A stretch of DNA of 64,000 bases from Candidatus Magasanikiibacteriota bacterium (GCA_042218065.1 JBDGRL010000002.1:15539-79538); one strand, 5' to 3'; positions 2,145-33,732 are shown, numbered from the stretch's first letter. A program made the numbers and translations. The notes: generated by a model from the sequence alone, not told the origin.

Positions 2145-2624
2145 TTAAAATGGAATATCTTCTACTTCAATTTCTTCTTCATCTTGTTCTCCAGGTCCGC
2201 CACCTGACTGATTTTGTGGTTGTTGCGGCTGACCTCCGCTTTGTTGTTGGGACTGTTGAGGGGGTGGTGGCTGCCCTTGACCTTGAGACTGACCCTGCTC
2301 TCCTCCAAGCATAATTAAATTGTTTACCACTATCTCTGTTCTATATCTCTTTACTCCGTCATCGCCCGTCCAGTCTCGTGTCTGTAATCTGCCTTCACAA
2401 TAAACTCTCCTACCTTTTGAAAGATATTGTCCAGCTATTTCTGCTAATTTACCCCAAATTACACAATTGTGAAACTCAGTCCTTTCTTGTTGTTCTCCAT
2501 TATCATCGGTCCAAACTCGGTTTGTAGCTACAGTCATGTTAGCTACACTTCTGCCTGAAGGCGTGCTTCTAAGTTCTGGATCCTGCGTCAATCTACCTAA
2601 AATTGTAGCCCTATTCAGGTCCAT
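2145..2624 (-). CDS. ssb: Single-stranded DNA-binding protein
   Basis: An OB-fold region precedes a Gln/Gly/Pro-rich linker and the acidic C-terminal tail EEEIEVEDIPF (the SSB DIPF tip). It lies between rpsF and rpsR. Confidence 0.9.
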   Translation of the reverse strand: MDLNRATILGRLTQDPELRSTPSGRSVANMTVATNRVWTDDNGEQQERTEFHNCVIWGKLAEIAGQYLSKGRRVYCEGRLQTRDWTGDDGVKRYRTEIVVNNLIMLGGEQGQSQGQGQPPPPQQSQQQSGGQPQQPQNQSGGGPGEQDEEEIEVEDIPF

Positions 2625-2665
2625 AAAATAAAATTAATGTGAATTATGTGTTTATTATAACACAA

Positions 2666-3247
2666 TTACACATCTGATAAATCTTCGTCATCATCTAAAA
2701 TATCATCCAACTTATCGTCTATTTCTTCTATTGAAACATCTTCATCTTCTTCGGTTTCTGTTCGTTTGTCAACGTCTTCATCCTCCTCAGTAGCTTCATC
2801 TTCTTCGGCTTCCTCTTTTTGACTAGAATCTGTTTTAGTTTCATCGACGTCCTCTTGTTTTTTTTCAAAATATTCTTCTTTTTCATCAATCCACTCGAGT
2901 ATCTCATCTCTGTTTTTAATGGATTTTATCTCATTAATTTCTCTTCTTTTTTCTTTTTGTTCAGGATCAACCTGTTCAATCATGGCTCTTAGTAGACTTG
3001 ATATTTTGTTCAACTCCTCTTGAAGCTGGTCGTTATTAGATGGTTCTAAATTATAGTTAAATAAGAAATAATAACCATACTTAATGCCGTCCATTTGGTA
3101 TGACATCTTTGTTTTACCCAAATCTCTAACATCTAAATTTTCAGCACCTAAATCTTTTAATATGTCTTTTACTTTTTCTAGTTCCGGCTCCAATTCGGTC
3201 TCTGTCAAAGTTCCGGGCAAAACAGTTAATAGTTCATATTGTTTCAT
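2666..3247 (-). CDS. rpsF: 30S ribosomal protein S6 with a long acidic C-terminal extension
   Basis: The S6-like N-terminus MKQYELLTVLPG...DLGKTKMSYQM is followed by about 90 aa of an extremely Asp/Glu-rich tail. It is first in the rpsF-ssb-rpsR operon. Confidence 0.8.
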   Translation of the reverse strand: MKQYELLTVLPGTLTETELEPELEKVKDILKDLGAENLDVRDLGKTKMSYQMDGIKYGYYFLFNYNLEPSNNDQLQEELNKISSLLRAMIEQVDPEQKEKRREINEIKSIKNRDEILEWIDEKEEYFEKKQEDVDETKTDSSQKEEAEEDEATEEDEDVDKRTETEEDEDVSIEEIDDKLDDILDDDEDLSDV

Positions 3248-3315
3248 AAATCTTTAATTTAGTTATACAAGTGGAAGTAATATAGGAAATTTTTTTATTT
3301 TTGTCAACAACTTTA

Positions 3316-4002
3316 TTAAGCACCAAAGTTTCTTTCTCTAGTGTTAAAGAACTCAATAGCTTCATCCAGGTCTTTTTGGTCAAAAGCGGGCCAAAGAGTA
3401 TCAGTAAAAAAGTACTCAGCATAAGCAGCTTGCCAAATTAGGAAATTAGAGATTCTTTTCCTAGCACCAGTTCTTATCAACAAATCAACAGGAGGCATAT
3501 CACCTGTATCAAGAAAATCACCAAAGGTTCCCTCATCTAAGTCTTCAGGCTTTACGTCAGACTCCATAACCCTCCTTGCAGCCCTGGTAATCTCATCTCT
3601 ACCTCCATAATTTATAGCTAAAGTTAAAGTTAAGCTTTCATTCTCTTTGGTTTCTTCTTCTACTTTTTGTATTGTCTCTCTGGTATCTTCTGGTATTTTG
3701 CTTAAATCTCCAATCGTGTTTAATTTTACGTCATTTTCTAACAACTCATCCAGGTGATTAATCAATCTTTCAAATAAAGAAAAGAGGTGGTTCAACTCTC
3801 TCTCACTTCTTTCTTTTAAATTTTCAGTAGATAAAGCAAAGACCGTCAAATAAGGTATATCCTCTTCTAAAACAAGCTCACCTACATCTTTTAAGTTTTT
3901 ACCTCCTTCAGTATGTCCTTTTAATTTAGGTAACCCTTTACTTTTCGCCCATCTCCTGTTTCCATCCATGATTATTGCTAAATGTTTTAATTGATTGCTC
4001 AT
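3316..4002 (-). CDS. uppS: Undecaprenyl-diphosphate synthase
   Basis: HLAIIMDGNRRWAK is the classic cis-prenyltransferase motif, and the C-terminus carries RTGARKRISNFLIWQAAY. Confidence 0.9.
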   Translation of the reverse strand: MSNQLKHLAIIMDGNRRWAKSKGLPKLKGHTEGGKNLKDVGELVLEEDIPYLTVFALSTENLKERSERELNHLFSLFERLINHLDELLENDVKLNTIGDLSKIPEDTRETIQKVEEETKENESLTLTLAINYGGRDEITRAARRVMESDVKPEDLDEGTFGDFLDTGDMPPVDLLIRTGARKRISNFLIWQAAYAEYFFTDTLWPAFDQKDLDEAIEFFNTRERNFGA

Positions 4003-4102
4003 ATTTTTTTATTTGATCTTTACACAAAGATAAGGATAGTGAAAAAGATTGAAAAAAGCAAGTTTTTGTGCTACAATTGTGTTTGTAAAATACAAGATAC
4101 AA

Positions 4103-4186
4103 GCCGCGGTGGTGGAATTTGGTAGACACGGGGGATTTAAGATCCTCTGGGCTTTGCCTGTGCGGGTTCGAATCCCGCCCGCGGCA
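4103..4186 (+). tRNA. tRNA-Leu (anticodon TAA)
   Basis: Acceptor stem GCCGCGG/CCGCGGC with discriminator A. The anticodon loop is TT-TAA-GA, there is a long variable arm (type II), and the T-arm is GCGGGTTCGAATCCCGC. Confidence 0.8.
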
Positions 4187-4191
4187 CAAGT

Positions 4192-4264
4192 TGTGGATAA
4201 TTCTGTGTGTAACCTCCTTCTAATGTGGATAAATAAGGGTGATTTCCACAATTTCTGTGTATAA
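4192..4264. promoter_or_regulatory. Trio of DnaA-box 9-mers immediately 3' of tRNA-Leu
   Basis: Perfect TGTGGATAA at 4192-4200 and 4224-4232, plus TGTGTATAA at 4256-4264. Confidence 0.4.
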
Positions 4265-4363
4265 CTTGCCCTTAGAAGGCTGGTCATTATCAACAATCTC
4301 TAGATTGTAAAAATGATAAAAGTTTTATATAATTAACCTACTTAATAAATAATTCAAAAAAAT

Positions 4364-4609
4364 ATGGGAGAAATAAGTAAAGAAGAGCTTGAAAAAGAAA
4401 AGAAGCTAATATTAAAAAAATTAATCGATCACGCTGAATACAGTCCAAAACTGGAAGAAAAAATTAAAGCTAAATTTGAAGACTTAGGTGATGATGTAGA
4501 CGATAGTGTTCATGAGGTAGAACAGATGGAAGTGGAAACTACTGTGGTTTCTTTGCTTTTCGATAGACTTGAAGATATAAACAAAAAACTAGAACAAAAA
4601 GAAAAATAA
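4364..4609 (+). CDS. Hypothetical small acidic coiled-coil protein
   Basis: Complete ORF with a Lys/Glu-rich sequence; no recognisable motif. Confidence 0.35.
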   Translation: MGEISKEELEKEKKLILKKLIDHAEYSPKLEEKIKAKFEDLGDDVDDSVHEVEQMEVETTVVSLLFDRLEDINKKLEQKEK

Positions 4610-8379: not shown

Positions 8380-9684
8380 ATGGATTATAAAATCAATGAA
8401 CTTGATGGTTCAGAAGTTGAAATAGAGATTACCGTAGAACCGGAAGAATATAAAGAAGATATGAAAAAAGCAGCTGAACGAATCTCAAAAGAAGTCGATA
8501 TTGACGGTTTCAGACAAGGAAACGCTCCATATAGGGTAATCAAGAATGAAGTTGGGGAAATGAAAATAATGCAGGAGGCAATTCAAACTATAGCACAAAG
8601 AACCTATGTAAAAGCACTTAAGAAAGAGGATATTGAAAGTATAGGATCTCCAGAAGTAGATATTAAAAAAATGGCACCAGGTGATTCAGTCGAATTCACT
8701 GCCACAGTAGGAGTAATGCCGGAAGTTGACTTAGCAGACCCTAGTGAGTTGGAGGTAGAAAAAGAAGTAAAAGAAGTGAAAGAAGAGGATGTGCAAGATT
8801 CTATAGACAGCTTAAGAAAAATGCATGCAGATGAAGAAATTAAAGAAGGACCGGCTGAAGGTGATGATAAACTAGTGTTAGACATGAACATGTCTGTAGA
8901 TGGTGTACCAGTTGAAGGAGGTCAGGCTAAAGATTATCAAGTTTACTTAGATGAAGACGAACAACACATACCTGGTTTTAATGAAAAAGTGGAAGGTATG
9001 GAAGCAGGAGAAGAGAAAGAATTCACCTTAGACTTCCCAGAAAACCATTATCAACAAAATTTAGCTGGTAAAACTGTGGATTTCGATGTAACTGTAAATG
9101 AGGTATACAGTCAAGAACTACCTGAATTAGATGATGATTTTGCAAAAAAAATGGGACAAGAAGATGTAGAGGGTATCAAAAACTTAATCAAAGAAAATCT
9201 TAAACAAGAAGCTAAGAAGAAGGAAAACCAGCAATTTGAAATAAAACTCTTAAACAAAATGGTAGAAGAATCAGAGTTTGAAGAAATACCCGAAGTACTT
9301 GTAGATGCTGAAAGACAGAAGATGTACGAGGAGTTGAAAAATGATTTAGATAAAAATGGAGTAACAATTGAACAATATCTAGAAGATATCAAAAAAACAG
9401 AAGAAGAACTTCTAGAAGGGTTTACAGAACAAGCTACAAAAAGAGCAAAAACAGCTTTAATCTCAAGAAAATTAGCAGAAAAAAATGAAGATCTACAACC
9501 GAAAGAAGAAGAGATAGAGCAAGAAATAGAACGAATAAGACAAGCAAATCAAGGTAACGAAGAAATGGAAGAAAGACTACAAAACCAAGAAGTAAAAAAC
9601 ACTATAGCAACCACCGTCCAAAACAGAAAAGTTGTAGAATGGTTAAAAGATCAAGTTGAGGTAAAAGAAAAGAAAGAAGAATAA
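8380..9684 (+). CDS. tig: Trigger factor
   Basis: The N-terminal ribosome-binding motif GFRQGNAPYRVIKNEVG (the GFRxGxxP signature), a size of 434 aa and a central PPIase-like region. Confidence 0.9.
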   Translation: MDYKINELDGSEVEIEITVEPEEYKEDMKKAAERISKEVDIDGFRQGNAPYRVIKNEVGEMKIMQEAIQTIAQRTYVKALKKEDIESIGSPEVDIKKMAPGDSVEFTATVGVMPEVDLADPSELEVEKEVKEVKEEDVQDSIDSLRKMHADEEIKEGPAEGDDKLVLDMNMSVDGVPVEGGQAKDYQVYLDEDEQHIPGFNEKVEGMEAGEEKEFTLDFPENHYQQNLAGKTVDFDVTVNEVYSQELPELDDDFAKKMGQEDVEGIKNLIKENLKQEAKKKENQQFEIKLLNKMVEESEFEEIPEVLVDAERQKMYEELKNDLDKNGVTIEQYLEDIKKTEEELLEGFTEQATKRAKTALISRKLAEKNEDLQPKEEEIEQEIERIRQANQGNEEMEERLQNQEVKNTIATTVQNRKVVEWLKDQVEVKEKKEE

Positions 9685-9710
9685 ATAAAATTTTTTAAAA
9701 ATAACAAAAA

Positions 9711-9740
9711 AACACCCTTTTTTACAGGGTGTTTTTTTAT
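9711..9740. terminator. Bidirectional rho-independent terminator
   Basis: AACACCCT-TTTTTTAC-AGGGTGTT followed by TTTTTTAT, lying between the convergent tig (+) and DUF167 (-) genes. Confidence 0.6.
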
Positions 9741-9779
9741 TTAAATACTAAATTCTTTAAAGATTATTTCAATATTAAA

Positions 9780-10031
9780 TTATGTTTTAATAAGTACTGT
9801 TTTTCTTCTACTCGTTTTACCTCTTTTTATTTTAATACCTGAAGTATCAACACCGAACTTCTCTGCCAATATTTTTAATAACTGTTCATTGGCTTTACCG
9901 TCTTTAGGTTGAGCGGTTAAATTCACTTTTAAAGTGCCATCAGCCATATTATTGACGGCTACCTGAGAAGAATTAGGGTTTACTTTTACTTTAAGTTTTT
10001 TCATTTTAGAAACTGCATAACTATTAATCAA
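9780..10031 (-). CDS. DUF167/YggU family protein
   Basis: An 83-aa protein with KVKVNPNSSQ...DGTLKVNLTAQPKDGKANEQLLKILA, typical of UPF0235/YggU. Confidence 0.65.
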   Translation of the reverse strand: MINSYAVSKMKKLKVKVNPNSSQVAVNNMADGTLKVNLTAQPKDGKANEQLLKILAEKFGVDTSGIKIKRGKTSRRKTVLIKT

Positions 10032-10305: not shown

Positions 10306-10680
10306 TTATTCAATTATCCCCACTTTTGTTAACAAATTTCTTATATCATCTTTAATATCTTCAAATCCATAATCTAGTATAGTCTCTTTTGCTAAAATAG
10401 CGGCTAAATAACCTTTATTTTTATTGTACTGATTCAATAATTCCTTTGTAGCTTCCCTAATTTGCCTTTTCTTTTTGTTTCTAACCGTAGCTTTATTTGA
10501 AATATTACTACTTACTATAAAACCTATCTTTAAATCATTTTCATTGAATCTACCAGAGTATTTATCTATATCTATTTTCCAGTATTTTAAATCAACAATA
10601 TCCCCACCTTCAAAATCACCTTCAGAGAACAAAATTTCAAAATTTCGTTCTTTTTTTAACCTAAATTCAGAAGGAATCAC
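10306..10680 (-). CDS. rnpA: Ribonuclease P protein component
   Basis: A small basic protein with LKKERNFEILF...KATVRNKKKRQIREA, typical of RnpA, placed between dnaN and yidD. Confidence 0.7.
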   Translation of the reverse strand: MIPSEFRLKKERNFEILFSEGDFEGGDIVDLKYWKIDIDKYSGRFNENDLKIGFIVSSNISNKATVRNKKKRQIREATKELLNQYNKNKGYLAAILAKETILDYGFEDIKDDIRNLLTKVGIIE

Positions 10681-13468: not shown

Positions 13469-13681
13469 GTTTGATGTGGATAAATTAATTCTAGGTATAT
13501 TTTAGCAAAAAAATGACGAAGGTAAAGTTTTGTCAAACTATAAGTTATGGATAAACCTGTGGAAAACTTGTGGAGGTTGTGGATATCTCCTTCTAAACCT
13601 ATGTTGAAAACTTGATTTTATTGGTTAATTAATTGTGAATAATTAGTTTTTAAGATTATTTTAGATTACTGTTTTGAAAGA
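13469..13681. promoter_or_regulatory. DnaA-box cluster upstream of dnaA (oriC/dnaA promoter region)
   Basis: Perfect TGTGGATAA at 13475-13483, then TATGGATAA (13545), TGTGGAAAA (13558), TGTGGAGGT (13569) and TGTGGATAT (13578). That is five boxes within about 110 bp. Confidence 0.65.
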
Positions 13682-16675
13682 TTATTTAACTTTCATTTTC
13701 ATACTTCCACCTATATACTCATTGTTATTGGATCTTATTTTTGCTTTTATAGTCCACTGTCCTTTATTTTCTTCTGGATAATTATTCCATATGACTTTGT
13801 TTCTTTCTTTTTTGAATCTTGTTTTGTCTTTAATTTTCTCTAGAGTTATAGATTTGTCATTTTTTGTGGCTTGTATAGTTATAGAGTCTATTTCTTTTTC
13901 TTTGTAAGTTCTGAAAAATATAGATAATGGATAGTCTCGTTTAGTTATAGTTTTATTAAACCTTATGAAAGATACAGAGGACTTAACTTTACCTGCTTTT
14001 AAGATAAAGTTAATCTTTTTGATTTTCCTGTTTCCAATATCATCTTGAGCAATAATTGTTAATGTATGCTTGCCATCTTCTAAGGTTTTAGCTTTGTAAT
14101 TTAAATTGAAGGGGTGTTTGTCTTCTACACCGACATACCTTCCATCAATTCTGTATATTACTTTATCAACTCCTCTTGGAGCTGAGAATCTAATATCAGT
14201 ATTAATTTCTCTGGTCGTAATTGTTGAGCTTGGTTTTGGGTAGACGACATTAACAGTAGGAGCTAGCTCAGGTGAATATCCTTTATCTTTTTTGGTTGGA
14301 GGTTTTTTAAAGGTTAGATTCCAGTCAGGTTTTTTCTTTTTCATTCTTTTTTTCCAGTCTTTGATTGCTTTTTCCCATATTTCGTACTGTGGGTCTTTAC
14401 TTGGATTTTCTGGTCTTGGTCCTCTGGGATTATCTTTATCTACGTAGTGGAGTATTGAGTGTGGTGGTACAAAGGTTTTTGTTTCTATAAGATGATCTGG
14501 AGTTGAGCTGGTGGCAATCAGGCCTGTTTCTTCATTTATTTTCATTTTAATTTTACCTTTTTCTCCTTTTAGTATTGGTTTATCTACGTCTAAGTTAGGG
14601 GGATCAGGGAATTTTTTTATTGGCTTGTCTTCAAGAGCTTTTTTCATAAACTCATTCCAGATCGGTCCTGCTACTTTTGAGCCGCCAAAACCTCTTTTCA
14701 TAGGTGAGTTATCTGTATTTCCGGCCCAAACACCTGCAACTAAGTTCGGTGTATATCCCATTGTCCAAGAGTCTACATAATCGTTTGTAGTACCTGTTTT
14801 TGCAGCTACTGGCCTTTCTTCTAGTTGAAGCACACTATCAGTACCAAATGCGAATGCTCTTGCTTCGTTGTCACTTAGTACGTCAGTTATTAATTTGGTG
14901 TACTTTGCATCTATGATTCTTTCCCCTTCTTTTTTCTTTTGTTCATAAAGTATTTCTCCATTTGGCCCCTCTACTTTTAGTATACTTGTAGGCTCCCTTT
15001 GTATGCCTCCATTGGCTAAAGTTGCATAAGCATTTGCGTGTTCAAGAGGTATTACTCCTCCCCCTCCTAATACGAGCGATAGTCCCAGGTTTCTTTTTGA
15101 TAAAGTGGTATATCCTAAATCTTTCGAAAACTCTAATGCTTTATCAGTACCGGTAAGATAAAGTGTTTTTACCGCAGGGATATTTATAGACCCTTGTAGA
15201 GCTTTTCGCATTGTAACTGGCCCTCTTTCTTTAAGGTCATAGTTTTTTGGTATATATTCTTTTGATTCCGGAACTGCAAAATCGGTTTTTACGTCATAAA
15301 GTATAGTGGAAGGAGTATAACCCTTTTGAAATGCAGCTGTATATACTATCGGTTTGAAGGATGAGCCGGGCTGTCTTTTAGCTTCAGTTATAATATTAAA
15401 TTTACCGTCAATTTTTTCATTATAAAAATTTTTTGATCCAATCATAGATAAGATCTGGCTTGATTTTGGGTCCATAGCGACAAGTCCTGTATTATCTGCT
15501 TCTGCTTTATTTAATACCTTGCTTCCGGTAGAGCTTACTACTTTCTTTGCTTTTTTTTGCATATCCCAGTCTAAAGAGGTGATCACTTTCAAACCACCGG
15601 TGTCTACTTTTCTTTCTCCAAATTTATCTATCAATTTCTCTCTTACATGGAGTACGAAGTGTGGAGCTTTTATATTTTGAAAATCTCTAGATAAGGATAG
15701 AGGTTTCTTTTGTGTATTCTCCATTTTTTCTTTTGAGATATAACCTTCTTTATACATTCTATAAAGTACAAAGTTCCTTCTTTGCTTAAGTTCTTTTGGG
15801 TTGGCAAGAAATGAGCTCGGAGCCTTTGGTAAACCGGCCAATATGGCAGATTCATTTAAATTTAAATCTGAAACCTCTTTGTTAAAATAATCTTCAGCTG
15901 CAGATGCTACCCCGTAGTTTGTAGAGCCATATGGTATTTCATTGAAGTACATTTTGAGTATTTGTTTCTTGGAATATTGTTGCTCCAGCTTTAGTGATAA
16001 TATCATCTCTTTAATTTTTCTAATGTAGCTTCTTTCTCTTGTTAAAACAGCATTTTTTACTAATTGTTGAGTCAGTGTAGATGTGCCCTGTATTCGTTCG
16101 TTATAAACTATGGCGTTGAAGACAGCTCTAGCAATGCTCAAAGGTCTAACGCCGTAATGTTCATAAAACCTATCATCCTCCGTTGCTATAACCCCTTGTT
16201 TTAGGTGTTTAGGAACTTTATTCAATTCAACTAGAGTTCTATTTTTATTGGCAAAAATTTCGTAAAGCAGGTGTTCTCCACTCCTGTCATAGATTTTGGT
16301 GGTTTGTGCTATATCTCTTTGTATTAGTTGATCCGGGCTGGGAAGGTTTTTACTAGCCCAAGCTGTAATTATTGTTATAGAAAGAAAACCAAACACAAAT
16401 ATAGTCAAAGCACCCCAACCTATAATCTTCTTAAATTTTGAACTTTTTATGAAATTTATCTTAAAAATGAAGGAGAAGATATAAAAAATACCACTGAATA
16501 CAGCTTTAATAATGCTCCAAAGAAATTTAAAAATCCAAGCACCAATTTTATAAGATACTGTAAAAACTTTTCCTAAAACACTTGTATTTTTCTTCTTTTT
16601 GGTGTATTTCTTCTTGGTTTTTTTATTTTCTTTTTTATTGTCAAAGCCGTAGGATCTTCGGTCTTTTTTACTCAT
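13682..16675 (-). CDS. mrcA: Class A penicillin-binding protein 1A (glycosyltransferase plus transpeptidase) with a Lys-rich N-terminal tail and a long C-terminal extension
   Basis: GT51 motifs (EDDRFYEHYGV, RxxTLTQQ), transpeptidase SSFKP (SxxK) and KTGTTND (KTG). About 40 aa of N-terminal Lys-rich sequence precede the TM, and about 250 aa of extra beta-rich C-terminal sequence follow. Confidence 0.9.
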   Translation of the reverse strand: MSKKDRRSYGFDNKKENKKTKKKYTKKKKNTSVLGKVFTVSYKIGAWIFKFLWSIIKAVFSGIFYIFSFIFKINFIKSSKFKKIIGWGALTIFVFGFLSITIITAWASKNLPSPDQLIQRDIAQTTKIYDRSGEHLLYEIFANKNRTLVELNKVPKHLKQGVIATEDDRFYEHYGVRPLSIARAVFNAIVYNERIQGTSTLTQQLVKNAVLTRERSYIRKIKEMILSLKLEQQYSKKQILKMYFNEIPYGSTNYGVASAAEDYFNKEVSDLNLNESAILAGLPKAPSSFLANPKELKQRRNFVLYRMYKEGYISKEKMENTQKKPLSLSRDFQNIKAPHFVLHVREKLIDKFGERKVDTGGLKVITSLDWDMQKKAKKVVSSTGSKVLNKAEADNTGLVAMDPKSSQILSMIGSKNFYNEKIDGKFNIITEAKRQPGSSFKPIVYTAAFQKGYTPSTILYDVKTDFAVPESKEYIPKNYDLKERGPVTMRKALQGSINIPAVKTLYLTGTDKALEFSKDLGYTTLSKRNLGLSLVLGGGGVIPLEHANAYATLANGGIQREPTSILKVEGPNGEILYEQKKKEGERIIDAKYTKLITDVLSDNEARAFAFGTDSVLQLEERPVAAKTGTTNDYVDSWTMGYTPNLVAGVWAGNTDNSPMKRGFGGSKVAGPIWNEFMKKALEDKPIKKFPDPPNLDVDKPILKGEKGKIKMKINEETGLIATSSTPDHLIETKTFVPPHSILHYVDKDNPRGPRPENPSKDPQYEIWEKAIKDWKKRMKKKKPDWNLTFKKPPTKKDKGYSPELAPTVNVVYPKPSSTITTREINTDIRFSAPRGVDKVIYRIDGRYVGVEDKHPFNLNYKAKTLEDGKHTLTIIAQDDIGNRKIKKINFILKAGKVKSSVSFIRFNKTITKRDYPLSIFFRTYKEKEIDSITIQATKNDKSITLEKIKDKTRFKKERNKVIWNNYPEENKGQWTIKAKIRSNNNEYIGGSMKMKVK

Positions 16676-16785: not shown

Positions 16786-17307
16786 ATGAATATACTGGAT
16801 CAAATCAAGTTAGAAGATAATTTAATAAGACTTTTTAGTCTTTCAGTTATAGCAATTTTTGTCCTAACTGCAGCAAAACCAGCAACAATTACCACAAAAG
16901 CTAAAAATAAAACACCAAAAAAGAACGAAATACATAATTTTAATGGAAATAATCTACCTAAATCTAAACAAAAAGATCCTATAAGGTCTTATTGGGTTGT
17001 AGCCACTGCTTATTCGTCTGAGGTAGGACAAACTGATGATTCACCATGTATACCATCTAAGGCTGATTTTAACCTCTGTGAGCATTACAAAAAGCACAAA
17101 ATAGAGGATACGATAGCTGCCAACTTTCTACCTTTGGGAGCTAAAGTAAAATTCCCCGAGCTTTACGGTGATAAAGTATTTACTGTAAGAGATCGTATGA
17201 ATGAAAGATATAACGGAACTGCTCGTATTGATTTTTGGAAATCTCACACCTCTGAAGCCGAAAACTTCGGTGTCAAAAGTGTAAAAATGGAGATTATAAA
17301 ATACTAA
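16786..17307 (+). CDS. 3D-domain (MltA/YuiC-like) cell-wall-associated protein
   Basis: An N-terminal TM, then VATAYSSEVGQTDDSPC...AANFLPLGAKVKFPELYGDKVFTVRDRM...RIDFW, which matches the 3D-domain pattern. Confidence 0.6.
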   Translation: MNILDQIKLEDNLIRLFSLSVIAIFVLTAAKPATITTKAKNKTPKKNEIHNFNGNNLPKSKQKDPIRSYWVVATAYSSEVGQTDDSPCIPSKADFNLCEHYKKHKIEDTIAANFLPLGAKVKFPELYGDKVFTVRDRMNERYNGTARIDFWKSHTSEAENFGVKSVKMEIIKY

Positions 17308-17421: not shown

Positions 17422-17973
17422 AAGATTAAACCGCTTTCTGAAGACCTGGATTTTACCGGACTTACTTCTAGTTCTAATGTAGAATCACTTTTTCTTACAA
17501 CTGTAGATAGGCTAAAGCAAAGGGGTATTACTGCTGAACTAGCAGAATCAAAACACACTTCCGGTGGTTTTTTAGGAGTCTTGTCGGTGAGTCTGTATGA
17601 GCTAAATATAGAGATAAAAGTAGAGGTCTCGCTGCGAGAAAAGAGTGCTAAAAGTGAGATTATAACTATCGCGAATGATTTCATTCCCAGCTATACAATT
17701 ACAGCACTAGCTCAAGAAAAAATTGTAGAAGAAAAGCTGCAGGCTGTGTTTAAAAGAACTAAACCCAGAGATTGGTACGATCTTTATTTTTTACTTCGCT
17801 CTCGGCTGGTTCCTGTAGAACAAAGAGATGTTTTAAAAGATGCCCTAGTAAAACTTAATCAAACAGATATTTCCTTTAGAAAATTGAAATTATTATTACC
17901 TCAAGACCATCATCAGATTTTACAGGATTTTGAGAAAAATTTGTCTCGTGAATTGAAAAGATTTGCAGACTGA
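17422..17973 (+). pseudogene. N-terminally truncated AbiEii/DUF1814-type nucleotidyltransferase toxin gene; the reading frame runs open from the tRNA-Cys 3' end
   Basis: Only the C-terminal part is present (KPRDWYDLYFLLRSRL, the AbiEii C-terminal motif). The frame is open from 17422 directly abutting the tRNA, with no ATG or RBS. The nucleotidyltransferase N-domain is absent. Confidence 0.5.
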
Positions 17974-18376: not shown

Positions 18377-19645
18377 ATGAATAGTGTTCAATTTATTAAA
18401 AGGGATCTACTTGAAGAACTGAAAGACCACTTATCTGAAAAAGAAATGTCTCTGATAGTCGGCCCCAGACAAGCAGGTAAGACTACCATAATGAGGAAAG
18501 TGCAGTCCCACCTGGAGAAAAACGGACAAAACACTCTGTTTTATGATTTGGATAAGCAGCCAGAGCTGTTTGAAACACAAGAAGAGTTTTTACAGAATCT
18601 CAAACTTGATGCGAACAAACAGAGAACATTCGTATTTTTAGATGAAATTCAACGCAAAAAAAACGCCGGTTTGTTTTTAAAAGGTATATATGACCGTGAT
18701 TTAGACTATAAGTTTATAGTTTCCGGCTCCGGCAGCTTGGAGCTTAAATCCGATGTGCATGAATCCATGGCGGGAAGAAAATTGGTGTTTGAATTGAGTA
18801 CAATATCCTTTCCGGAGTTTGTGAATTTTAAGACTGATTATCAATATGAAAGTCAGCTAGATCAATTTTTTCGCCTCAGAAAGGAAAAAGCTAGACTATT
18901 TTTGAAAGAGTATCTTAATTTTGGCGGTTATCCCCGTGTTGTTCAGAAACAAACAAGAGAACAAAAAAGAAGAATGATTGGTGAAATAGTGGATAGTTAT
19001 TTAAGAAAAGATATAACTGATTTGCTTGGTGTCAGAAAGACCGATAAATTCTCTAAACTGATAAAAATAGTTAGTGACCAAGTAGGTCAACCAATGAATT
19101 ACTCTAAATTAGCCCGTGATCTGCAAATAGACCAAAAAACGATTAAAAATTATATTTATTATGCTGAGGAGACTTTTGTAGTGGATAGAGTAAGACCTTT
19201 TTTTAGAAATAGAAAAAAAGAATTAACTAAAGCACCTGTTCCTTATTTTTTTGATATAGGTTTTAGAAATTATGAGCTAGGACAGTTTGGCAATTTAAGA
19301 ACAAGCAGCGAGTTTGGTATAGCTTTTGAAAACTTGGTGTACAATCAGCTTAAATCTAAGACCAGATTTTCTGCTTATGAAGTAAAATATTGGAGGACCA
19401 AGAACCAAACTGAGGTAGATTTTATTGTGACTTCAAGTCAAAGAAGAGCAGTTCCGATTGAGGTGAAATATAAAAACTTGAAAGAAACCAAAATACCCCG
19501 TTCTTTCAGGAGTTTTCTAAAAAAATATGAACCTGAAAAAGCTTATATCGTCAATCTAAGTCTTAATGAAACCAAGGAAATTGAGGATGTTGAAGTTGAG
19601 TTTATTTCTATCTTTAATTTTTTAGGCAAGTTGATAGTTAGCTAG
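18377..19645 (+). CDS. AAA+ ATPase with a C-terminal DUF4143 domain
   Basis: Walker A GPRQAGKTTIM, Walker B FVFLDEIQ, and a 422-aa two-domain architecture typical of the AAA_14/DUF4143 family. Confidence 0.75.
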   Translation: MNSVQFIKRDLLEELKDHLSEKEMSLIVGPRQAGKTTIMRKVQSHLEKNGQNTLFYDLDKQPELFETQEEFLQNLKLDANKQRTFVFLDEIQRKKNAGLFLKGIYDRDLDYKFIVSGSGSLELKSDVHESMAGRKLVFELSTISFPEFVNFKTDYQYESQLDQFFRLRKEKARLFLKEYLNFGGYPRVVQKQTREQKRRMIGEIVDSYLRKDITDLLGVRKTDKFSKLIKIVSDQVGQPMNYSKLARDLQIDQKTIKNYIYYAEETFVVDRVRPFFRNRKKELTKAPVPYFFDIGFRNYELGQFGNLRTSSEFGIAFENLVYNQLKSKTRFSAYEVKYWRTKNQTEVDFIVTSSQRRAVPIEVKYKNLKETKIPRSFRSFLKKYEPEKAYIVNLSLNETKEIEDVEVEFISIFNFLGKLIVS

Positions 19646-24964: not shown

Positions 24965-25186
24965 TTAGGGCTTCTGTAGTTTGGCAATAAAGGAGGTAAG
25001 CTTTCCGTCTTGTGTTAACTGCAAAGATTTTTCCATATTAAAGTTTTGTTTTATTTTAGGTTTGAATTTCTCTGGCAGTTTTTCTTGAATTTCTGTTTTA
25101 TTTCTTTTGATTTTATTTAATACTTTTTTGTAAGTTTTAGATAAATGTGTGTTTAGATCTTCAAAATTTTCTAATCTGTTTAACAC
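24965..25186 (-). CDS. Hypothetical small basic protein
   Basis: Complete ORF of 73 aa; no motif recognised. Confidence 0.3.
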   Translation of the reverse strand: MLNRLENFEDLNTHLSKTYKKVLNKIKRNKTEIQEKLPEKFKPKIKQNFNMEKSLQLTQDGKLTSFIAKLQKP

Positions 25187-25481
25187 TATCGATGAAGATG
25201 TTGGGTTTTTTAATTAAATTGACGTCATTCTCAGACAGCCATTTGTTTATCTTCCTTTCTATGTCTTCTCAGACGGAAGGGTAGTCCAGACACCCTTTGA
25301 ACATTTTGACTTTCATTTTTTCCTCCTGTTTTACTACACCTTACCACATAACACCCGAACGGTTTAACAGACGGCATTACGTCTGAAATTATGTGGGTTT
25401 GTTAGAGAACGATAATTATTACAAATATTTTTTGTAACAAGTATCGTTTTCTAACTTGAAAATCGGAGTGCGGCGTCAAGT

Positions 25482-25575
25482 GAGTGCAGTACTTGACGCC
25501 GCATGTACTTTGGTCTCTACTTGAAGCACAGCTTCAAGTAGAGACACCGGACTTACGTGTCCAGCGGTTTTTGAG
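25482..25575. other. Tandem perfect GC-rich hairpins immediately 3' of the GC-rich gene (putative terminators or structured element)
   Basis: GCGGCGTCAAGT-gagtgcagt-ACTTGACGCCGC is a 12-bp perfect stem. It is followed by GGTCTCTACTTGAAG-cacag-CTTCAAGTAGAGAC and then CCGGAC-ttacgt-GTCCAG. Confidence 0.5.
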
Positions 25576-25577
25576 AG

Positions 25578-26747
25578 TTAACTCTCTTGTTTTGGCGCGG
25601 ATTCGACAGCATCTTCGGCTCTGTTCTGCCAATCACCGGCATGAACCACGCGCTCAACGGCAAGTTCTTTCGCTTTCGTGGCTGTAAACTCACCATTGGC
25701 GAAGTCACGCGCCAACTCTTCCTTGTCGAACACGAACATGGCGTGTCCGTAGTTCGGAGAGTCGACCACGTAGACAGGTTCGCCGTCTTTTTTGCCGATG
25801 AAGAGCAGACGTTCGCCGAGACTGACCTCGACGTCGTGACATTTATCGAAGATGTCACCGTCGAAACATTCGCCCTTGACCTTCTCGATCCGTTCTTTGT
25901 TTCGATTTCGTTTCCTTTGCTTTTTTACTTGCTCTCGGACAAGTTCGTTGGAGTTGATCTCATCGAGAAACTTGCCCTCAATCGCTTCCAGAAACAGCCC
26001 CCAGTTTTCCTCTTTGATTGGTTGGGCGAAACGGATGTCCTGATGCTTTTTCTGCCACTCGTGTCCATGAGGGCGTTCAGGCGGGATTTCTATCTCACGG
26101 TTCGTCATTTTTGAACCAAACCAACGAAAGGGTTGCTCGAATTTTCTAGCGAGCACATCCCCCTCCGAAAGATTGCGAGCCTGCTCGAAAGTAATGGTTT
26201 CGTCCAGGATCGTAGTGGCACTACAATAAGGCTCCAAAATCTCCGTTCTTAAAAGCAGGTCTCCAATAATCTCTTTATCCAGATCAGCCAACTCCATGAT
26301 TTTATCAAGTCTTCCATATCTATAGAATCCATCTAAGAGGGATGAGCTTTCGTCTTTCTCTTTCCAACTATTTACCGACCCATCCCAGCACATAACAGGT
26401 ACTTTTTTGGATCTAAAAGTAAAATGGCTTCCATCTTCAGTTTGGATGTAAACTACCTCTACTGTCGTAGGAAATGAAATATTAGGGTCTCTAGGCATGA
26501 ATCCCCGTGGATTACACTCATCACTTGGACGATCATAAAACACTGTTCTCGGCTGATCCGAATCGGAAAAGTATACTTGTTTAAGGTATTGCTGCAACTT
26601 TCGATGGGTCTCCTCCTTTACATCTACTTCTGGTACAGGCATCATCGAAGGATCGATCCCCTTTTTTGTAAAAATTTTCTCAGTATAGATTCTTTTTGAT
26701 TTAACTGTAAGAGTTTCCAAAAATCTCTTTTTGTTGTCGTTGCTCAT
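25578..26747 (-). CDS. Hypothetical protein encoded by a compositionally anomalous (GC-rich 3' half) gene
   Basis: 389-aa complete ORF. The 3' two-thirds of the gene (about 25580-26250) is visibly about 50% GC against a local background near 30%. Overlapping ORFs on both strands are typical of high-GC DNA. No family was recognised. Confidence 0.45.
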   Translation of the reverse strand: MSNDNKKRFLETLTVKSKRIYTEKIFTKKGIDPSMMPVPEVDVKEETHRKLQQYLKQVYFSDSDQPRTVFYDRPSDECNPRGFMPRDPNISFPTTVEVVYIQTEDGSHFTFRSKKVPVMCWDGSVNSWKEKDESSSLLDGFYRYGRLDKIMELADLDKEIIGDLLLRTEILEPYCSATTILDETITFEQARNLSEGDVLARKFEQPFRWFGSKMTNREIEIPPERPHGHEWQKKHQDIRFAQPIKEENWGLFLEAIEGKFLDEINSNELVREQVKKQRKRNRNKERIEKVKGECFDGDIFDKCHDVEVSLGERLLFIGKKDGEPVYVVDSPNYGHAMFVFDKEELARDFANGEFTATKAKELAVERVVHAGDWQNRAEDAVESAPKQES

Positions 26748-30667: not shown

Positions 30668-31780
30668 TCAACTTTCTAACTCCGGGCCTTCTACTTGTTC
30701 AGCTTCTATTTCTTGCTCTACTTCGGTAATTTTAGCTACATCTTTATCTACTTTTCTCAACTCATCATAAGCAGTATTAAAATGATTCACTGTAGTAGAT
30801 AGAGTTTTTCCTAGCTTTTGCATATAAGTATCGTGATTTTGGATGTGGTTTTTTAACTTTTCTACATTTTTTCTTATTTCTTTGGCGCTTTCTTCTATTT
30901 GAAGAGATTTCAAACCTTGCAATACAGTTTGTAGATAAGCTGCGAATGTAGTTGGTGATACGATTATAACATTCTTGTCCTTGTGTGCATACTCGATTAA
31001 ATTTCTTGTAGTCGCTTCAGTAGAACCTACTTTATTGACTAGAAGATCATAATATATTGCTTCAGCCGGGATAAACATGAATGCAAATTCTAGTGTACCT
31101 TGGTTTGGTTTAATGTACTTGGAAGTCTCCTTGATTCTATTTTTTAAGTCTTTTTTAAGTTGTTTTTTTATTTTTTCTTTTTTATCTTTGTCTTCTGTTT
31201 TCATAAGTCTTGAGTAATTGTCCAATGAGAATTTTGCATCAACCGGTATTAGCCCATTTTTAGTTTTCACCACTGCATCTACTTGGTCACCATCTTCGAA
31301 TTTGTATTGCATTTCATATCCCATTGGAGGAAGAATGTTTTCTAGTATTAGTTTAAGTCCTGCTTCCCCCAGTGCTCCTCTTCTTTTTTGGTGGGTTAAA
31401 ACCTGTTTTAGATCTTGAAGCTGTTCTGAATAATCCATTACCTTCTCATTTGTCTTTTCTAAGCTCGTTAGTTTTTTCTGTAATTCTTTCAGTTCTTTTT
31501 TGCTATCTTTGGTTATATCTTTGATTGTTTCTTTGTTCTCTTTGTATTGTTCCTTGATAGATTTGTTTAATTTTTCCTTTGTTTTAGACATTTCTTTGTG
31601 GGTGTTTTGCATTTTTTCGTCTACAGTTTTATTTAGTTGCTGGATTTGTTTCTGTAGCATCATCATAGAATCTTTATTTTCTTCAGTTTGAAGCTGTTTT
31701 AGTTTTTTATACATTATATATATACCCACTAATGCGGCAATCAATAAAATTGTGAGTAAGATTAATAAAAGCTGTTCCAT
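30668..31780 (-). CDS. rmuC: DNA recombination protein RmuC
   Basis: An N-terminal TM and a long coiled coil precede a C-terminal RmuC domain (FAFMFIPAEAIYYDLL...IIVSPTTFAAYLQTV). Confidence 0.8.
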   Translation of the reverse strand: MEQLLLILLTILLIAALVGIYIMYKKLKQLQTEENKDSMMMLQKQIQQLNKTVDEKMQNTHKEMSKTKEKLNKSIKEQYKENKETIKDITKDSKKELKELQKKLTSLEKTNEKVMDYSEQLQDLKQVLTHQKRRGALGEAGLKLILENILPPMGYEMQYKFEDGDQVDAVVKTKNGLIPVDAKFSLDNYSRLMKTEDKDKKEKIKKQLKKDLKNRIKETSKYIKPNQGTLEFAFMFIPAEAIYYDLLVNKVGSTEATTRNLIEYAHKDKNVIIVSPTTFAAYLQTVLQGLKSLQIEESAKEIRKNVEKLKNHIQNHDTYMQKLGKTLSTTVNHFNTAYDELRKVDKDVAKITEVEQEIEAEQVEGPELES

Positions 31781-32084
31781 TTAAATAGTGTTACTTAATG
31801 CCAAGTTATTATAACACTATAGGTAATGGATAGAAAATTTTAGTATATTATATTTTACGACGCAGAATTTATTCTTAATTAAGTGAAATTTAAGTTTGTT
31901 AAAAAGTGATTAAAAATTTAATCAGAATCTGATTTTATTAATTCTCGTTTGTATCTTAATTTATTTTATTTGAAATTGTTTCACGTGAAACAATATAGGC
32001 TTTTTAAACTAATAAGATTAAAATAAATATTTTAGCTTGATAAATTTATTGAAATTTGTTACTGTGAAGTTGTTCTTTCAGGAC

Positions 32085-32365
32085 AACGAGTTTGCTAGTG
32101 GTAATTCCTAGGATTACCTACTGGCATGCCCTAGCCATCTCTGGGAGCAGCTAATAGCTGCCTAAGATTGATGCTCCGTTCGGGCGAGTCCGGATAATCA
32201 ATCTTAGAAAAAGCTGGCAGCCGATGCTGGGGCTTACTTGCCTTCGGCAGGGCAGGACCTCCTCCCCAGTGAATCGGTTTGGGGTTTCACCCACCCCGCC
32301 TCCCGATAGATCTCTATTGCCCTGATCAAGCAATATATCTACCGGGAGGTAAACGGGTTTTTTTA
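32085..32365 (+). ncRNA. GC-rich structured RNA-like element of unassigned identity, between parS sites 1 and 2
   Basis: About 280 nt at over 50% GC inside roughly 25% GC intergenic DNA. Multiple hairpins: GGTAAT-tcctagg-ATTACC, GCAGC-taata-GCTGC, GATTGAT...ATCAATC, CTTGCC-ttc-GGCAGG, and a long CCTCCCG...CGGGAGG stem followed by a T7 run. No clear protein frame. Confidence 0.35.
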
Positions 32366-32800
32366 TTTAAAATTGTTTCACGTGAAACAATTCTGCTCGT
32401 ATTTTACTCTGATATGGGTATTTAGCAGTAATTTTGCAGTTAAAATGTTTCACGTGAAACAATTTTACATCAATATACAGTCTTTTTGCTTATAAAAAAT
32501 GTTTCACGTGAAACAATTTAGTTACTTAAAACGTGTAAATAAGACAAAACACCGAAAAAAAGTGAATAATATTGTTTCACGTGAAACACTTTTTAAACTG
32601 AATAACCAAAATTATCTTTATTTGCATATTTATTACTTTTTTTTAGTATAGCTCCCTTTTTTATCTTAGATTGATAACAGCTCCCAAAAATGCTATAATC
32701 ACCCTGTATTGTTTCACGTGAAACAATTTAAACCAAGAAAATATAGGAAATAGGGTAAATGAGATGAAAAATGGATGAAAATGTTTCACGTGAAACATTT

Positions 32801-32872
32801 GCCCTCGTAGTTTAATGGACAAAACAAAAGCCTCCTAAGCTTTAGATGCACGTTCGATTCGTGCCGAGGGCA
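32801..32872 (+). tRNA. tRNA-Arg (anticodon CCT)
   Basis: Acceptor GCCCTCG/CGAGGGC, anticodon stem-loop AAAGC-CTCCTAA-GCTTT, T-arm GCACGTTCGATTCGTGC; 72 nt. A parS site sits immediately upstream (32780-32799). Confidence 0.85.
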
Positions 32873-33180
32873 CAAGTAAATACTCTTCATTAGAAAGGTG
32901 CTGAGTGTTCTTTTAGTGTATATTTAGACTCAATGTTTCATGTGAAACATTGAAAAGATAAATTAAACTTGTTAAACCCCTATAAAAGCCAAAAAGTTAT
33001 AAAGATATAGAAAAAAGTATATTTATAACTGAAAAGTACATAAAATTGTTTCACGTGAAACAATTTGGTAAAACCTTTAATCAAAAACGGGCTTGTTAAT
33101 TGTTTCACGTGAAACAAAGAGGAGTTAAAAATCTGTTTAGTTGTTTTTTGAAATTTTAGCGTCGTAAAATATTAATATCT

Positions 33181-33265
33181 TGTGGAAAACTTGTTGATAA
33201 GTTAAAAAAATTAGTGGATAAATTGTGTATAAGTTCTTAAAATCTGTTGATAAAGCTGTGGATAA
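33181..33265. promoter_or_regulatory. Dense cluster of six DnaA-box-like 9-mers (second oriC-like or DnaA-titration element)
   Basis: TGTGGAAAA (33181), TGTTGATAA (33192), AGTGGATAA (33213), TGTGTATAA (33224), TGTTGATAA (33246) and a perfect TGTGGATAA (33257-33265), all on the same strand within 85 bp. AT-rich DNA follows. Confidence 0.5.
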
Positions 33266-33361
33266 AAACAATTTAAACTAAATTAAGCTCAAATTATAAT
33301 AAGTTTATATAGATCCGTTTTTATCGACTAAATATTGAAAAATTCATCAATCAAGGCGTAT

Positions 33362-33690
33362 TAGATCATAAAAAAATGTTACTGAAATGACTTACGGTTA
33401 GATCACAAAAAATGTTACTGTGGTGTGTTTAATTTTTTAAATTGAACACACCATGAACAATCAAGCTAAAACATCTTACCAGCGAGTGCAAGAGCACTCG
33501 CAGATAGACCAGAAAGTAAAAAATAAACTTAAAGAAAAATTTAAGCAACTTAACCCCAAACAACTTAAAGAAAACATAGACAAAATGATTAAAAAGATTA
33601 GAAAATCAGCCCAAAATACAAAATAATTTCAGTAACATGCTTTTATGATCTAACCGTGGGGGGTTGAGTAACAATTTTTATGATCTAAAG
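33362..33690. repeat. Four copies of a TAGATCA(Y)AAAAAATGTTACTG motif (two direct, two inverted) bracketing a 57-codon Lys-rich ORF
   Basis: Direct copies at 33362-33388 and 33398-33424; inverted copies at 33618-33648 and 33668-33690. The ORF 33453-33626 (+) encodes MNNQAKTSYQRVQEHSQIDQKVKNKLKEKFKQLNPKQLKENIDKMIKKIRKSAQNTK. A related GTTACTG motif lies at about 32055. Confidence 0.35.
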
Positions 33691-33732
33691 CGCAAGGTAC
33701 ACCCTTTTTAAAGTATGTGTTATAATAACCAC

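Follow-up and report, generated by a model that had tools for sequence, protein, structure and literature searches.

Structured RNAs of bacterial intergenic regions

Screens for GC content and intergenic-region length in AT-rich genomes yielded the OLE, raiA, ROOL and HEARO RNAs. Islands of this type are marked by a GC content far above the intergenic background together with a strong predicted structure, and the same signature is carried by the element described here, about 295 nt on the plus strand (~32070-32365) of a 64,000-nucleotide stretch of DNA (the window, meaning the whole of the stretch that was analysed). The window belongs to a metagenome-assembled genome (35% GC) of an uncultured Candidatus Magasanikbacteria organism (Patescibacteria/CPR). 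The OLE, raiA, ROOL and HEARO classes have many representatives with covariation, whereas the element is a singleton without a match to any of them in Rfam 15, and as a singleton it cannot define a new RNA class.

Free-standing bacterial ncRNA genes, with a sigma-70 promoter and a Rho-independent terminator, provide a second comparison. Like these genes, the element occurs as a single intergenic copy with a promoter, stable hairpins and, at its end, a stem followed by a U-run; it contains no ORF, and its 5'-terminal hairpin is of the sort found in many stable sRNAs. Compared with typical base-pairing sRNAs, however, it is larger (~295 nt) and far more structured (eight stacked hairpins), and it has no seed-target complementarity, no family and no conservation. 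Protein-sponge RNAs of the CsrB/RsmZ type, which end in a terminator, also carry many adjacent hairpins in one transcript. Unlike CsrB/RsmZ, the element has no repeated loop motif (no recurrent GGA), its hairpins differ in sequence and size, and it has no Rfam match. Intron-bearing tRNA genes of Patescibacteria (PMC13011429) come from the same phylum, are of similar length and are likewise invisible to default tRNA finders, but no tRNA exon halves and no group I core were detected in the element.

The element is a composition island with a stable fold, no coding potential, a house-type promoter, a terminator-like end, and no family match or homolog. We regard it as a candidate orphan ncRNA gene of a familiar kind, not of a new kind; a housekeeping identity is not supported. 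The reading that we prefer, and to which we give an even chance of being right, is a gene that is specific to this lineage and dispensable, with a stable ncRNA of ~295 nt as its product, highly structured and acting in trans.

Genomic setting

The 1.9-kb intergenic region that houses the element has RmuC on its left (30668-31780, minus strand; 100% identical to the NCBI protein of the same name) and a surface-protein operon, starting at 33715, on its right. Ten parS sites (TGTTTCACGTGAAACA, at most one mismatch) are spread across 31977-33116, where 0.04 would be expected by chance. One is located to the left of the element and the other nine (sites 2-10) to its right, in agreement with the first-pass annotation, which had described the element as embedded in a parS array. 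The main features of the setting are:

31977..31992, no strand assigned: parS site 1 (TGTTTCACGTGAAACA), an exact match; left flank of the unit
32374..32389, no strand assigned: parS site 2, the right flank of the unit, 9 nt past the T-run
32801-32873: tRNA-Arg(CCT) gene, within the same intergenic region, between parS sites 7 and 8
33181-33265: six DnaA-box-like sites on the same strand, within 85 nt, directly after the parS array and ~800 nt beyond the element

The dnaA, dnaN and rnpA genes are located 18-22 kb to the left of the element, and another DnaA-box cluster is present directly upstream of dnaA. Because of the parS sites, the DnaA boxes and this dnaA/dnaN/rnpA neighbourhood, the position of the element is, judged from the sequence, that of an origin-proximal, centromere-like array.

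The parS array is unusually dense for a chromosome, with ten consensus sites per 1.14 kb and tRNA-Arg(CCT) embedded among them. The same design, with nine parS sites and a tRNA, is found in a related locus (L085, 107-927) with a flanking protein 71% identical, and an array is also present in L083; the synteny of RmuC, parS and tRNA-Arg recurs in many Magasanikbacteria-like genomes. The tRNA-Arg gene has a strong promoter, TTGATA-17-TGcTATAAT, at 32671-32699, ~100 nt upstream of the tRNA. Its predicted precursor leader would hold two complete parS palindromes (32710 and 32782), so transcription would cross partition sites.

DnaA-box-like 9-mers form three clusters in the window (33181-33265, 13475-13781 and 4192-4295). 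One of them immediately precedes dnaA and is close to the minimum of the cumulative GC skew, and another adjoins tRNA-Leu; in L085 the same six-box cluster follows the parS array. The functional oriC may be any of the three clusters, or the origin may be bipartite. A 24-nt repeat, TTAGATCAYAAAAAA(A)TGTTACTG, is present in two direct and two inverted copies at 33358-33425 and 33625-33690, flanking a 57-aa lysine-rich ORF (33453-33626) for which a Pfam search gave no match. The TGTTACTG 8-mer occurs four times in the 64-kb window, always within the same 1.6-kb zone, and one copy forms the -10 region of the element; the repeat that contains it may be a shared operator or promoter element.

Composition and predicted fold

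The GC content is 0.555 over 32100-32299 and 0.22-0.26 in the flanks, which bears out the earlier description of a GC island above 50% in AT-rich DNA. Among all intergenic regions in the 64 kb, the element has the highest 200-nt GC content (0.56, against 0.19-0.47 elsewhere), and the next richest, two regions at 0.47, both contain tRNAs. Its overall value of 0.55 is within the range of the four tRNA genes of the window (0.49-0.63), as is expected for a structural RNA in a genome of 35% GC. The element is single-copy, with no other copy in the 64-kb window, and since an identical sequence is present in an independent Logan assembly of the same organism (L083), it is not the artefact of one assembler.

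The plus-strand minimum free energy (MFE) is -125.4 kcal/mol for 301 nt, and none of 100 dinucleotide shuffles is as stable. The corresponding z-score of -6.3 (-6.9 in a separate control run) is not distinctive by itself, since the neighbouring parS-rich and repeat-rich DNA is also low (-5.6 and -6.1); what sets the element apart is such a value together with its GC content. The RNA is predicted to form eight hairpins in a row, spaced 0-3 nt apart, with mean pair probabilities of 0.66-0.99, where the first-pass annotation had counted at least five clean hairpins and, at the end, a long stem followed by T7, now placed at 32298-32350 and 32358-32364. The parts of the predicted RNA are:

32070..32086, + strand: P0, 5'-terminal hairpin of 7 bp, loop UUC; pair probability 0.90
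32093..32126, + strand: P1, 15-bp hairpin with one bulge, apex CCUAGG; pair probability 0.97-0.98
32130..32145, + strand: P2, 5-bp hairpin, loop CCAUCU; pair probability 0.86
32147..32161, + strand: P3, 6-bp perfect hairpin, GCAGCU-AAU-AGCUGC; pair probability 0.93
32162..32207, + strand: P4, 11-bp perfect stem and 4-bp apical stem with G/C-rich unpaired bases (GGGCGAGU); pair probability 0.99 and 0.95
32219..32279, + strand: P5, three-segment hairpin (7+7+8 bp), internal loop with ACCUCCU; pair probability 0.77-0.94
32281..32297, + strand: P6, 5-bp hairpin, loop UUCACCC; pair probability 0.73
32298..32350, + strand: P7, long terminal hairpin of 8+5+6 bp (19 bp)
32358..32364, + strand: T7 run, forming with P7 an intrinsic-terminator-like end

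The minus strand folds nearly as stably (z -5.7), and the mirrored structure costs only ~3 kcal/mol. It may therefore be that the hairpins reflect palindromes at the DNA level instead of an RNA fold.

Promoter, strand and 3' end

A promoter of the house type of this genome lies 5-7 nt upstream of the element, a feature absent from the first-pass annotation. Its two parts are:

32037..32042, + strand: -35 hexamer TTGATA, the same as in the tRNA-Arg promoter at 32671
32057..32065, + strand: extended -10 TGtTACTGT, separated from the -35 by a 17-nt spacer; also one of the four TGTTACTG sites

The house promoter, as shared by tRNA-Leu, tRNA-Cys, tRNA-Arg and S20, has a -35 of TTGAnA, a 17-nt spacer and an extended -10 of TGnTAnnnT. 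The strict pattern TTGANA-N14-TGNTANNNT is present five times in 64 kb, with 0.54 expected (~9-fold), and a count of five is reached in 0 of 100 shuffles. The remaining four precede tRNA-Leu, trigger factor, an ORF at 16786 and tRNA-Arg, each oriented as the gene that it precedes. In the -10 hexamer of the element, TACTGT, only three of the six bases fit the consensus. The site looks like a sigma-70-type extended -10 promoter that would drive the element, and the transcript start predicted from the -10 spacing (~32069-32073) falls on the first base of hairpin P0.

At the other end, P7 is followed by UAAACGGG and then by T7 at 32358-32364. The U-run is 8 nt from the main P7 stem unless a 4-bp CCCG/CGGG extension forms across a UAAA bulge; this extension is part of the R2 consensus structure and brings P7 up to the U-run. 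A simple terminator scan did not call P7 and T7, the loop and stem of which are beyond the limits of the scan. Only on the plus strand does a U7 follow the last stem. In the plus-strand fold, G.U pairs number nine and there is a single A.C mismatch, the counts for the minus strand being four and two; the MFE of the plus strand is also lower, by 3-6 kcal/mol. The plus strand is thus favoured in the modelled fold, although the asymmetry is modest. Overall, the element looks like a self-contained plus-strand transcription unit; we infer transcription, the functional strand and all of the function discussed below.

Coding potential

One 60-aa frame is present on the minus strand (32151-32333, with a TTG start), and every other frame has stops. 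The first-pass annotation had dismissed this ORF as an artefact, seeing no credible ORF in the element, and the dismissal stands: the ORF is there, but it has no Pfam match and no relative among 5.8 billion proteins, and the gene caller of the Logan assembly did not call it. There is no codon-position GC bias (GC3 periodicity), six-frame translation was negative, and tblastn against 80 related loci gave no similarity. A coding sequence or pseudogene was rejected on the basis of the frames, GC3, tblastn, Pfam and the 5.8-billion-protein search. There is next to no chance that the element is a small protein gene, whether this minus-strand ORF or a short plus-strand one: the uninterrupted run of 60 codons would fit such a gene, but the TTG start, the lack of homologs and of codon-position bias, and the absence from the Logan gene calls argue against it.

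Comparison with known RNA families

At gathering thresholds, Rfam 15 detected only four tRNAs in the whole window, and a search of the 500-nt region 31950-32450 with lax filters gave nothing real at E<=10. The first-pass annotation had proposed a cmscan comparison with Rfam; as no family matches even at E<=10, the element is not simply a known gene. The same annotation had expected a housekeeping RNA (long SRP, 6S, tmRNA or RNase P), and this expectation fails: no model matches, ARAGORN is negative, the motifs are absent, and the element is missing in relatives. The RNase P, tmRNA and SRP motifs, which it could not match with confidence, are absent or of the wrong topology, and its fallback, a divergent or novel structured RNA, survives the lack of a match in Rfam 15.

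A formal check for RNase P RNA was warranted because rnpA is in the window (10306-10680). The element shares with type A/B RNase P RNAs a near-minimum size, a high GC content, the presence of rnpA in the window and two words, AGUCC (32187) and GGCUUA (32231), the only RNase P words that it contains. However, no RNaseP_bact_a/b match was obtained over 31950-32450 at the gathering threshold or at E<=10, the CR-I GGAAAGUCC and CR-V ACAGAA motifs are absent from the element, and there is no P1 closure; the motif strings used are those of E. coli M1 RNA. In RNase P RNA, the CR-I and CR-V strands form the P4 pseudoknot, which encloses the S-domain and P15, most of the molecule. The P4-like words of the element, being 40 nt apart, cannot enclose most of the molecule, and with the other motifs absent this identity was rejected.

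The remaining housekeeping RNAs were rejected as well. ARAGORN finds no tmRNA at default settings or with -m at an 80% threshold, and there is no T-loop motif, no tag reading frame and no tRNA-like domain with its acceptor stem, T-arm GGUUCGA and CCA-proximal end. The SRP domain IV (helix 8) motif (GGAAG..AGCA, GNRA loop), which caps a long helix 5, is absent, the fold has no long 5'/3' helix, and there is no Rfam match to SRP RNA. 6S RNA folds into one rod of ~180-200 nt, a hairpin opened at its centre by a large bubble. The eight separate hairpins of the element form no end-to-end rod, and there is no RF00013 match at E<=10. A riboswitch, T-box or ribosomal-protein leader was also rejected: there is no Rfam match, the DNA downstream consists of the parS array and a tRNA-Arg served by a separate promoter, and no ORF of at least 60 aa follows the element before 33715.

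It may still be asked whether a housekeeping RNA (RNase P RNA, tmRNA, SRP RNA or 6S RNA) so divergent that standard models miss it is encoded here. The presence of rnpA at 10306-10680 requires that the organism have an RNase P RNA at some locus; a structural RNA would be of such a size and GC content, AGUCC and GGCUUA are similar to the strands that pair in RNase P helix P4, and CPR RNAs may elude standard models (PMC13011429). We nevertheless consider this highly improbable, given that 500 nt yielded no Rfam match at E<=10, that the P4-like words are 40 nt apart while GGAAAGUCC, ACAGAA, SRP domain IV, a tRNA-like domain and a tag are absent, and that a chain of hairpins is neither a 6S-type rod nor a P1-closed RNase P architecture. 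In addition, the element is absent or decayed at the same locus in relatives; since it is missing at their syntenic locus, unlike an essential RNA at a conserved locus, it is not a universal housekeeping RNA.

CPR RNAs can escape standard models, as group I introns do (PMC13011429), and divergent tRNA introns of Patescibacteria were found with gpI_bact_tRNA.cm (tFind), a model outside Rfam (PMC13011429). In the literature on CPR-specific RNase P or structured RNAs, nothing was found beyond that tRNA-intron paper (PMC13011429). That the element is a tRNA gene split by an intron, or a divergent group I intron standing alone, of the kind found in Patescibacteria, is extremely improbable. A length of ~280 nt would suit a tRNA with a small intron, but the intron search of ARAGORN (-i) is negative at default settings and at >=80%, there is no RF00028 match at E<=10, and neither tRNA half is present: the 5' end lacks an acceptor or D-arm half, and the 3' end lacks a T-arm or acceptor half. 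ARAGORN made two calls at 70%, but their stems are poor and their exons are drawn from parS sequence; they were judged spurious.

Relatives and the question of foreign origin

Syntenic loci were collected through RmuC and the 225-aa protein of the right flank, giving 80 RmuC loci from GTDB genomes and 10 from the closest relatives. In the layout conserved among them, RmuC points away from a parS array that contains tRNA-Arg(CCT). Neither nhmmer nor blastn detected a homolog of the element across the 90 loci. Two covariance models, of the 5' and 3' halves, were run over 1.37 Mb and recovered only the element itself and one 15-bit match, in L081. The complete intergenic region of a relative at 54% identity (L088) lacks the element. 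The contigs of the three nearest relatives (L081, L085 and L090) end inside the parS/origin region, so that only part of this region is represented in these three.

L081, which holds the 15-bit match, is the nearest relative, with an RmuC 75% identical; the match falls at the syntenic position and has the same orientation as the element. A local alignment of the inter-parS segment with the L081 tail scores 56.5, compared with 38.6 +- 4.9 for shuffled sequence (1 of 500) and 35.5 for the reverse-complement control. For the GC-rich body alone, z is 3.1-3.9 against shuffles and ~2.5 against real AT-rich controls, some of which score higher; the RmuC gaps of other relatives are similar to the element only at background level. 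The L081 stretch is AT-rich and unstructured (fold z +0.3 and -0.2). The alignment contains one possible two-sided change, C-G to U-A in P2, which is weak evidence; the L081 match is itself marginal. It is possible, and the data are suggestive, that the L081 stretch is a decayed or never-elaborated ortholog. Since the nearest relative has at most a decayed trace and distant ones have nothing, the RNA would be dispensable, and not a universal housekeeping RNA.

GC-rich islands are present at the same position in five other loci (L001, L002, L008, L010 and L021), but these are protein genes on the RmuC strand and were rejected as counterparts of the element. They do indicate that the gap between RmuC and tRNA-Arg is a variable region. 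These gap genes (L001 ~9100-9850, L002 ~3950-4500, L008 ~9400-9800, L010 ~2300-3500, L021 ~8950-9800) are 10-25 points above genome GC; that of L002 encodes a signal-peptide protein and that of L008 a small helix-hairpin-helix-like protein. The origin-proximal RmuC-tRNA-Arg gap appears to be a hot spot for foreign DNA.

The element could accordingly be a foreign remnant, a recent GC-richer import (for instance an RNA gene or the non-coding end of a phage, plasmid or integrative element) with no function for the host or a selfish one. We consider this unlikely, though its chance is appreciable. It would suit the variable gap with its GC-rich protein genes in the five loci named above, the absence of the element from relatives, and the near-identical parS-containing 22-mers on both flanks, which are possible mediators of recombination. 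The unpaired positions are about as GC-rich as the paired ones (0.48 and 0.55), which fits a recent import from a GC-richer donor as well as functional constraint. However, blastn found no match in INPHARED phages or PLSDB plasmids, six exact-word scans of IMG/VR viral contigs gave chance matches only, and exact words in JGI metagenomes gave none for a 24-mer and, for an 18-mer, 21 chance matches in high-GC coding DNA. The element is also single-copy in the window, with no integrase or transposase gene nearby; its promoter follows the pattern of the host and contains the local TGTTACTG motif, and there is the weak collinear similarity to the syntenic stretch of L081. An inert GC-rich insert would, moreover, be unlikely to retain eight near-perfect hairpins.

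Exact-sequence look-ups of RmuC and S20 for sister strains returned only the source sample. Short-read contigs of every close relative (L081, L082, L084-L086 and L090), like the source's own Logan contig (L083), stop inside the parS/DnaA-box region, a pattern suggesting that assemblies of CPR MAGs break systematically at centromere/origin arrays.

Possible function

In the preferred reading, that of a trans-acting ncRNA gene, transcription would start at the sigma-70-type extended -10 promoter TTGATA-17-TGtTACTGT, and the RNA (~32070-32365, plus strand) would fold co-transcriptionally into its dense chain of eight hairpins. Transcription would stop at the P7 stem and U7, just before parS2, sparing the array of partition sites. 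The product would be a stable free-standing molecule that acts in trans, and its partner would probably be a protein or a second RNA. That it binds a protein or serves as a scaffold is a guess by exclusion.

Base-pairing at ribosome-binding sites is not the proposed mode of action. Antisense complementarity to the start regions of the 59 window genes is at chance level, the longest match being 10 nt compared with 9-12 nt for shuffled sequence. The exposed ACCUCCU and the C-rich loops are unlikely to be anti-SD seeds, because only 4 of the 59 genes have a Shine-Dalgarno-like 4-mer at -20 to -4. Translation in this organism appears to start largely without SD pairing.

The location of the element between parS1 and parS2-10 raises another model, in which the transcription unit or its DNA hairpins act in cis at the centromere or origin, either as a transcriptional or structural barrier with an influence on how ParB loads and slides on the array, or by terminating transcription conditionally and so controlling read-through across parS 2-7 towards tRNA-Arg. 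The end of the putative terminator 9 nt before parS2, the six DnaA boxes 800 nt further on and the stability of the fold on both strands would be in keeping with such a role, and the ACCUCCU of the P5 loop could rival the P7 5' strand, GCCUCCC, for GGGAGGU in a switch-like manner. However, relatives keep the parS array, tRNA-Arg and the DnaA boxes without the element, so centromere function does not depend on it; tRNA-Arg is preceded by a strong promoter of its own (32671-32699), and no known precedent was found. We regard a cis-acting element as improbable. There is a very small chance that the unit, strongly expressed and tightly terminated within the ten-site parS array next to the DnaA boxes, serves the chromosomal centromere as a component peculiar to this lineage, through the RNA or through transcription as such, and that it insulates or tunes ParB loading and sliding, or gates read-through of parS. 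Were this true, bacterial chromosome partition would receive an input from an RNA or from transcription; we know of no precedent for this.

If the ncRNA gene proposed here is expressed, its product would join a very short list of candidate structured RNAs without a housekeeping role that have been reported from Patescibacteria/CPR. In the tiny genomes of CPR bacteria, 300 nt of GC-rich non-coding sequence is costly to retain. The unusual site in a dense parS array near DnaA boxes offers a concrete locus at which to ask how transcription and the partition complex interact. In practical terms, the value of the analysis is in a flagged candidate and in a negative result, namely that the element is not the RNase P RNA, tmRNA, SRP RNA or 6S RNA of the organism.

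Other unusual segments of the window

A second intergenic stretch with a strongly negative fold z (-4.6) is located at 25174-25468. It adjoins a GC-rich 389-aa ORF (25578-26747) that has no Pfam match and overlapping ORFs on both strands, and the area 25174-26747 may be another imported or unusual segment. Elsewhere, a truncated AbiEii-type toxin domain (17581-17973, 130 aa) matches only the C-terminal half of its profile. It adjoins a DUF4143/AAA_14 ATPase at 18377-19645, and together the two look like the remnant of a defence or toxin-antitoxin module.
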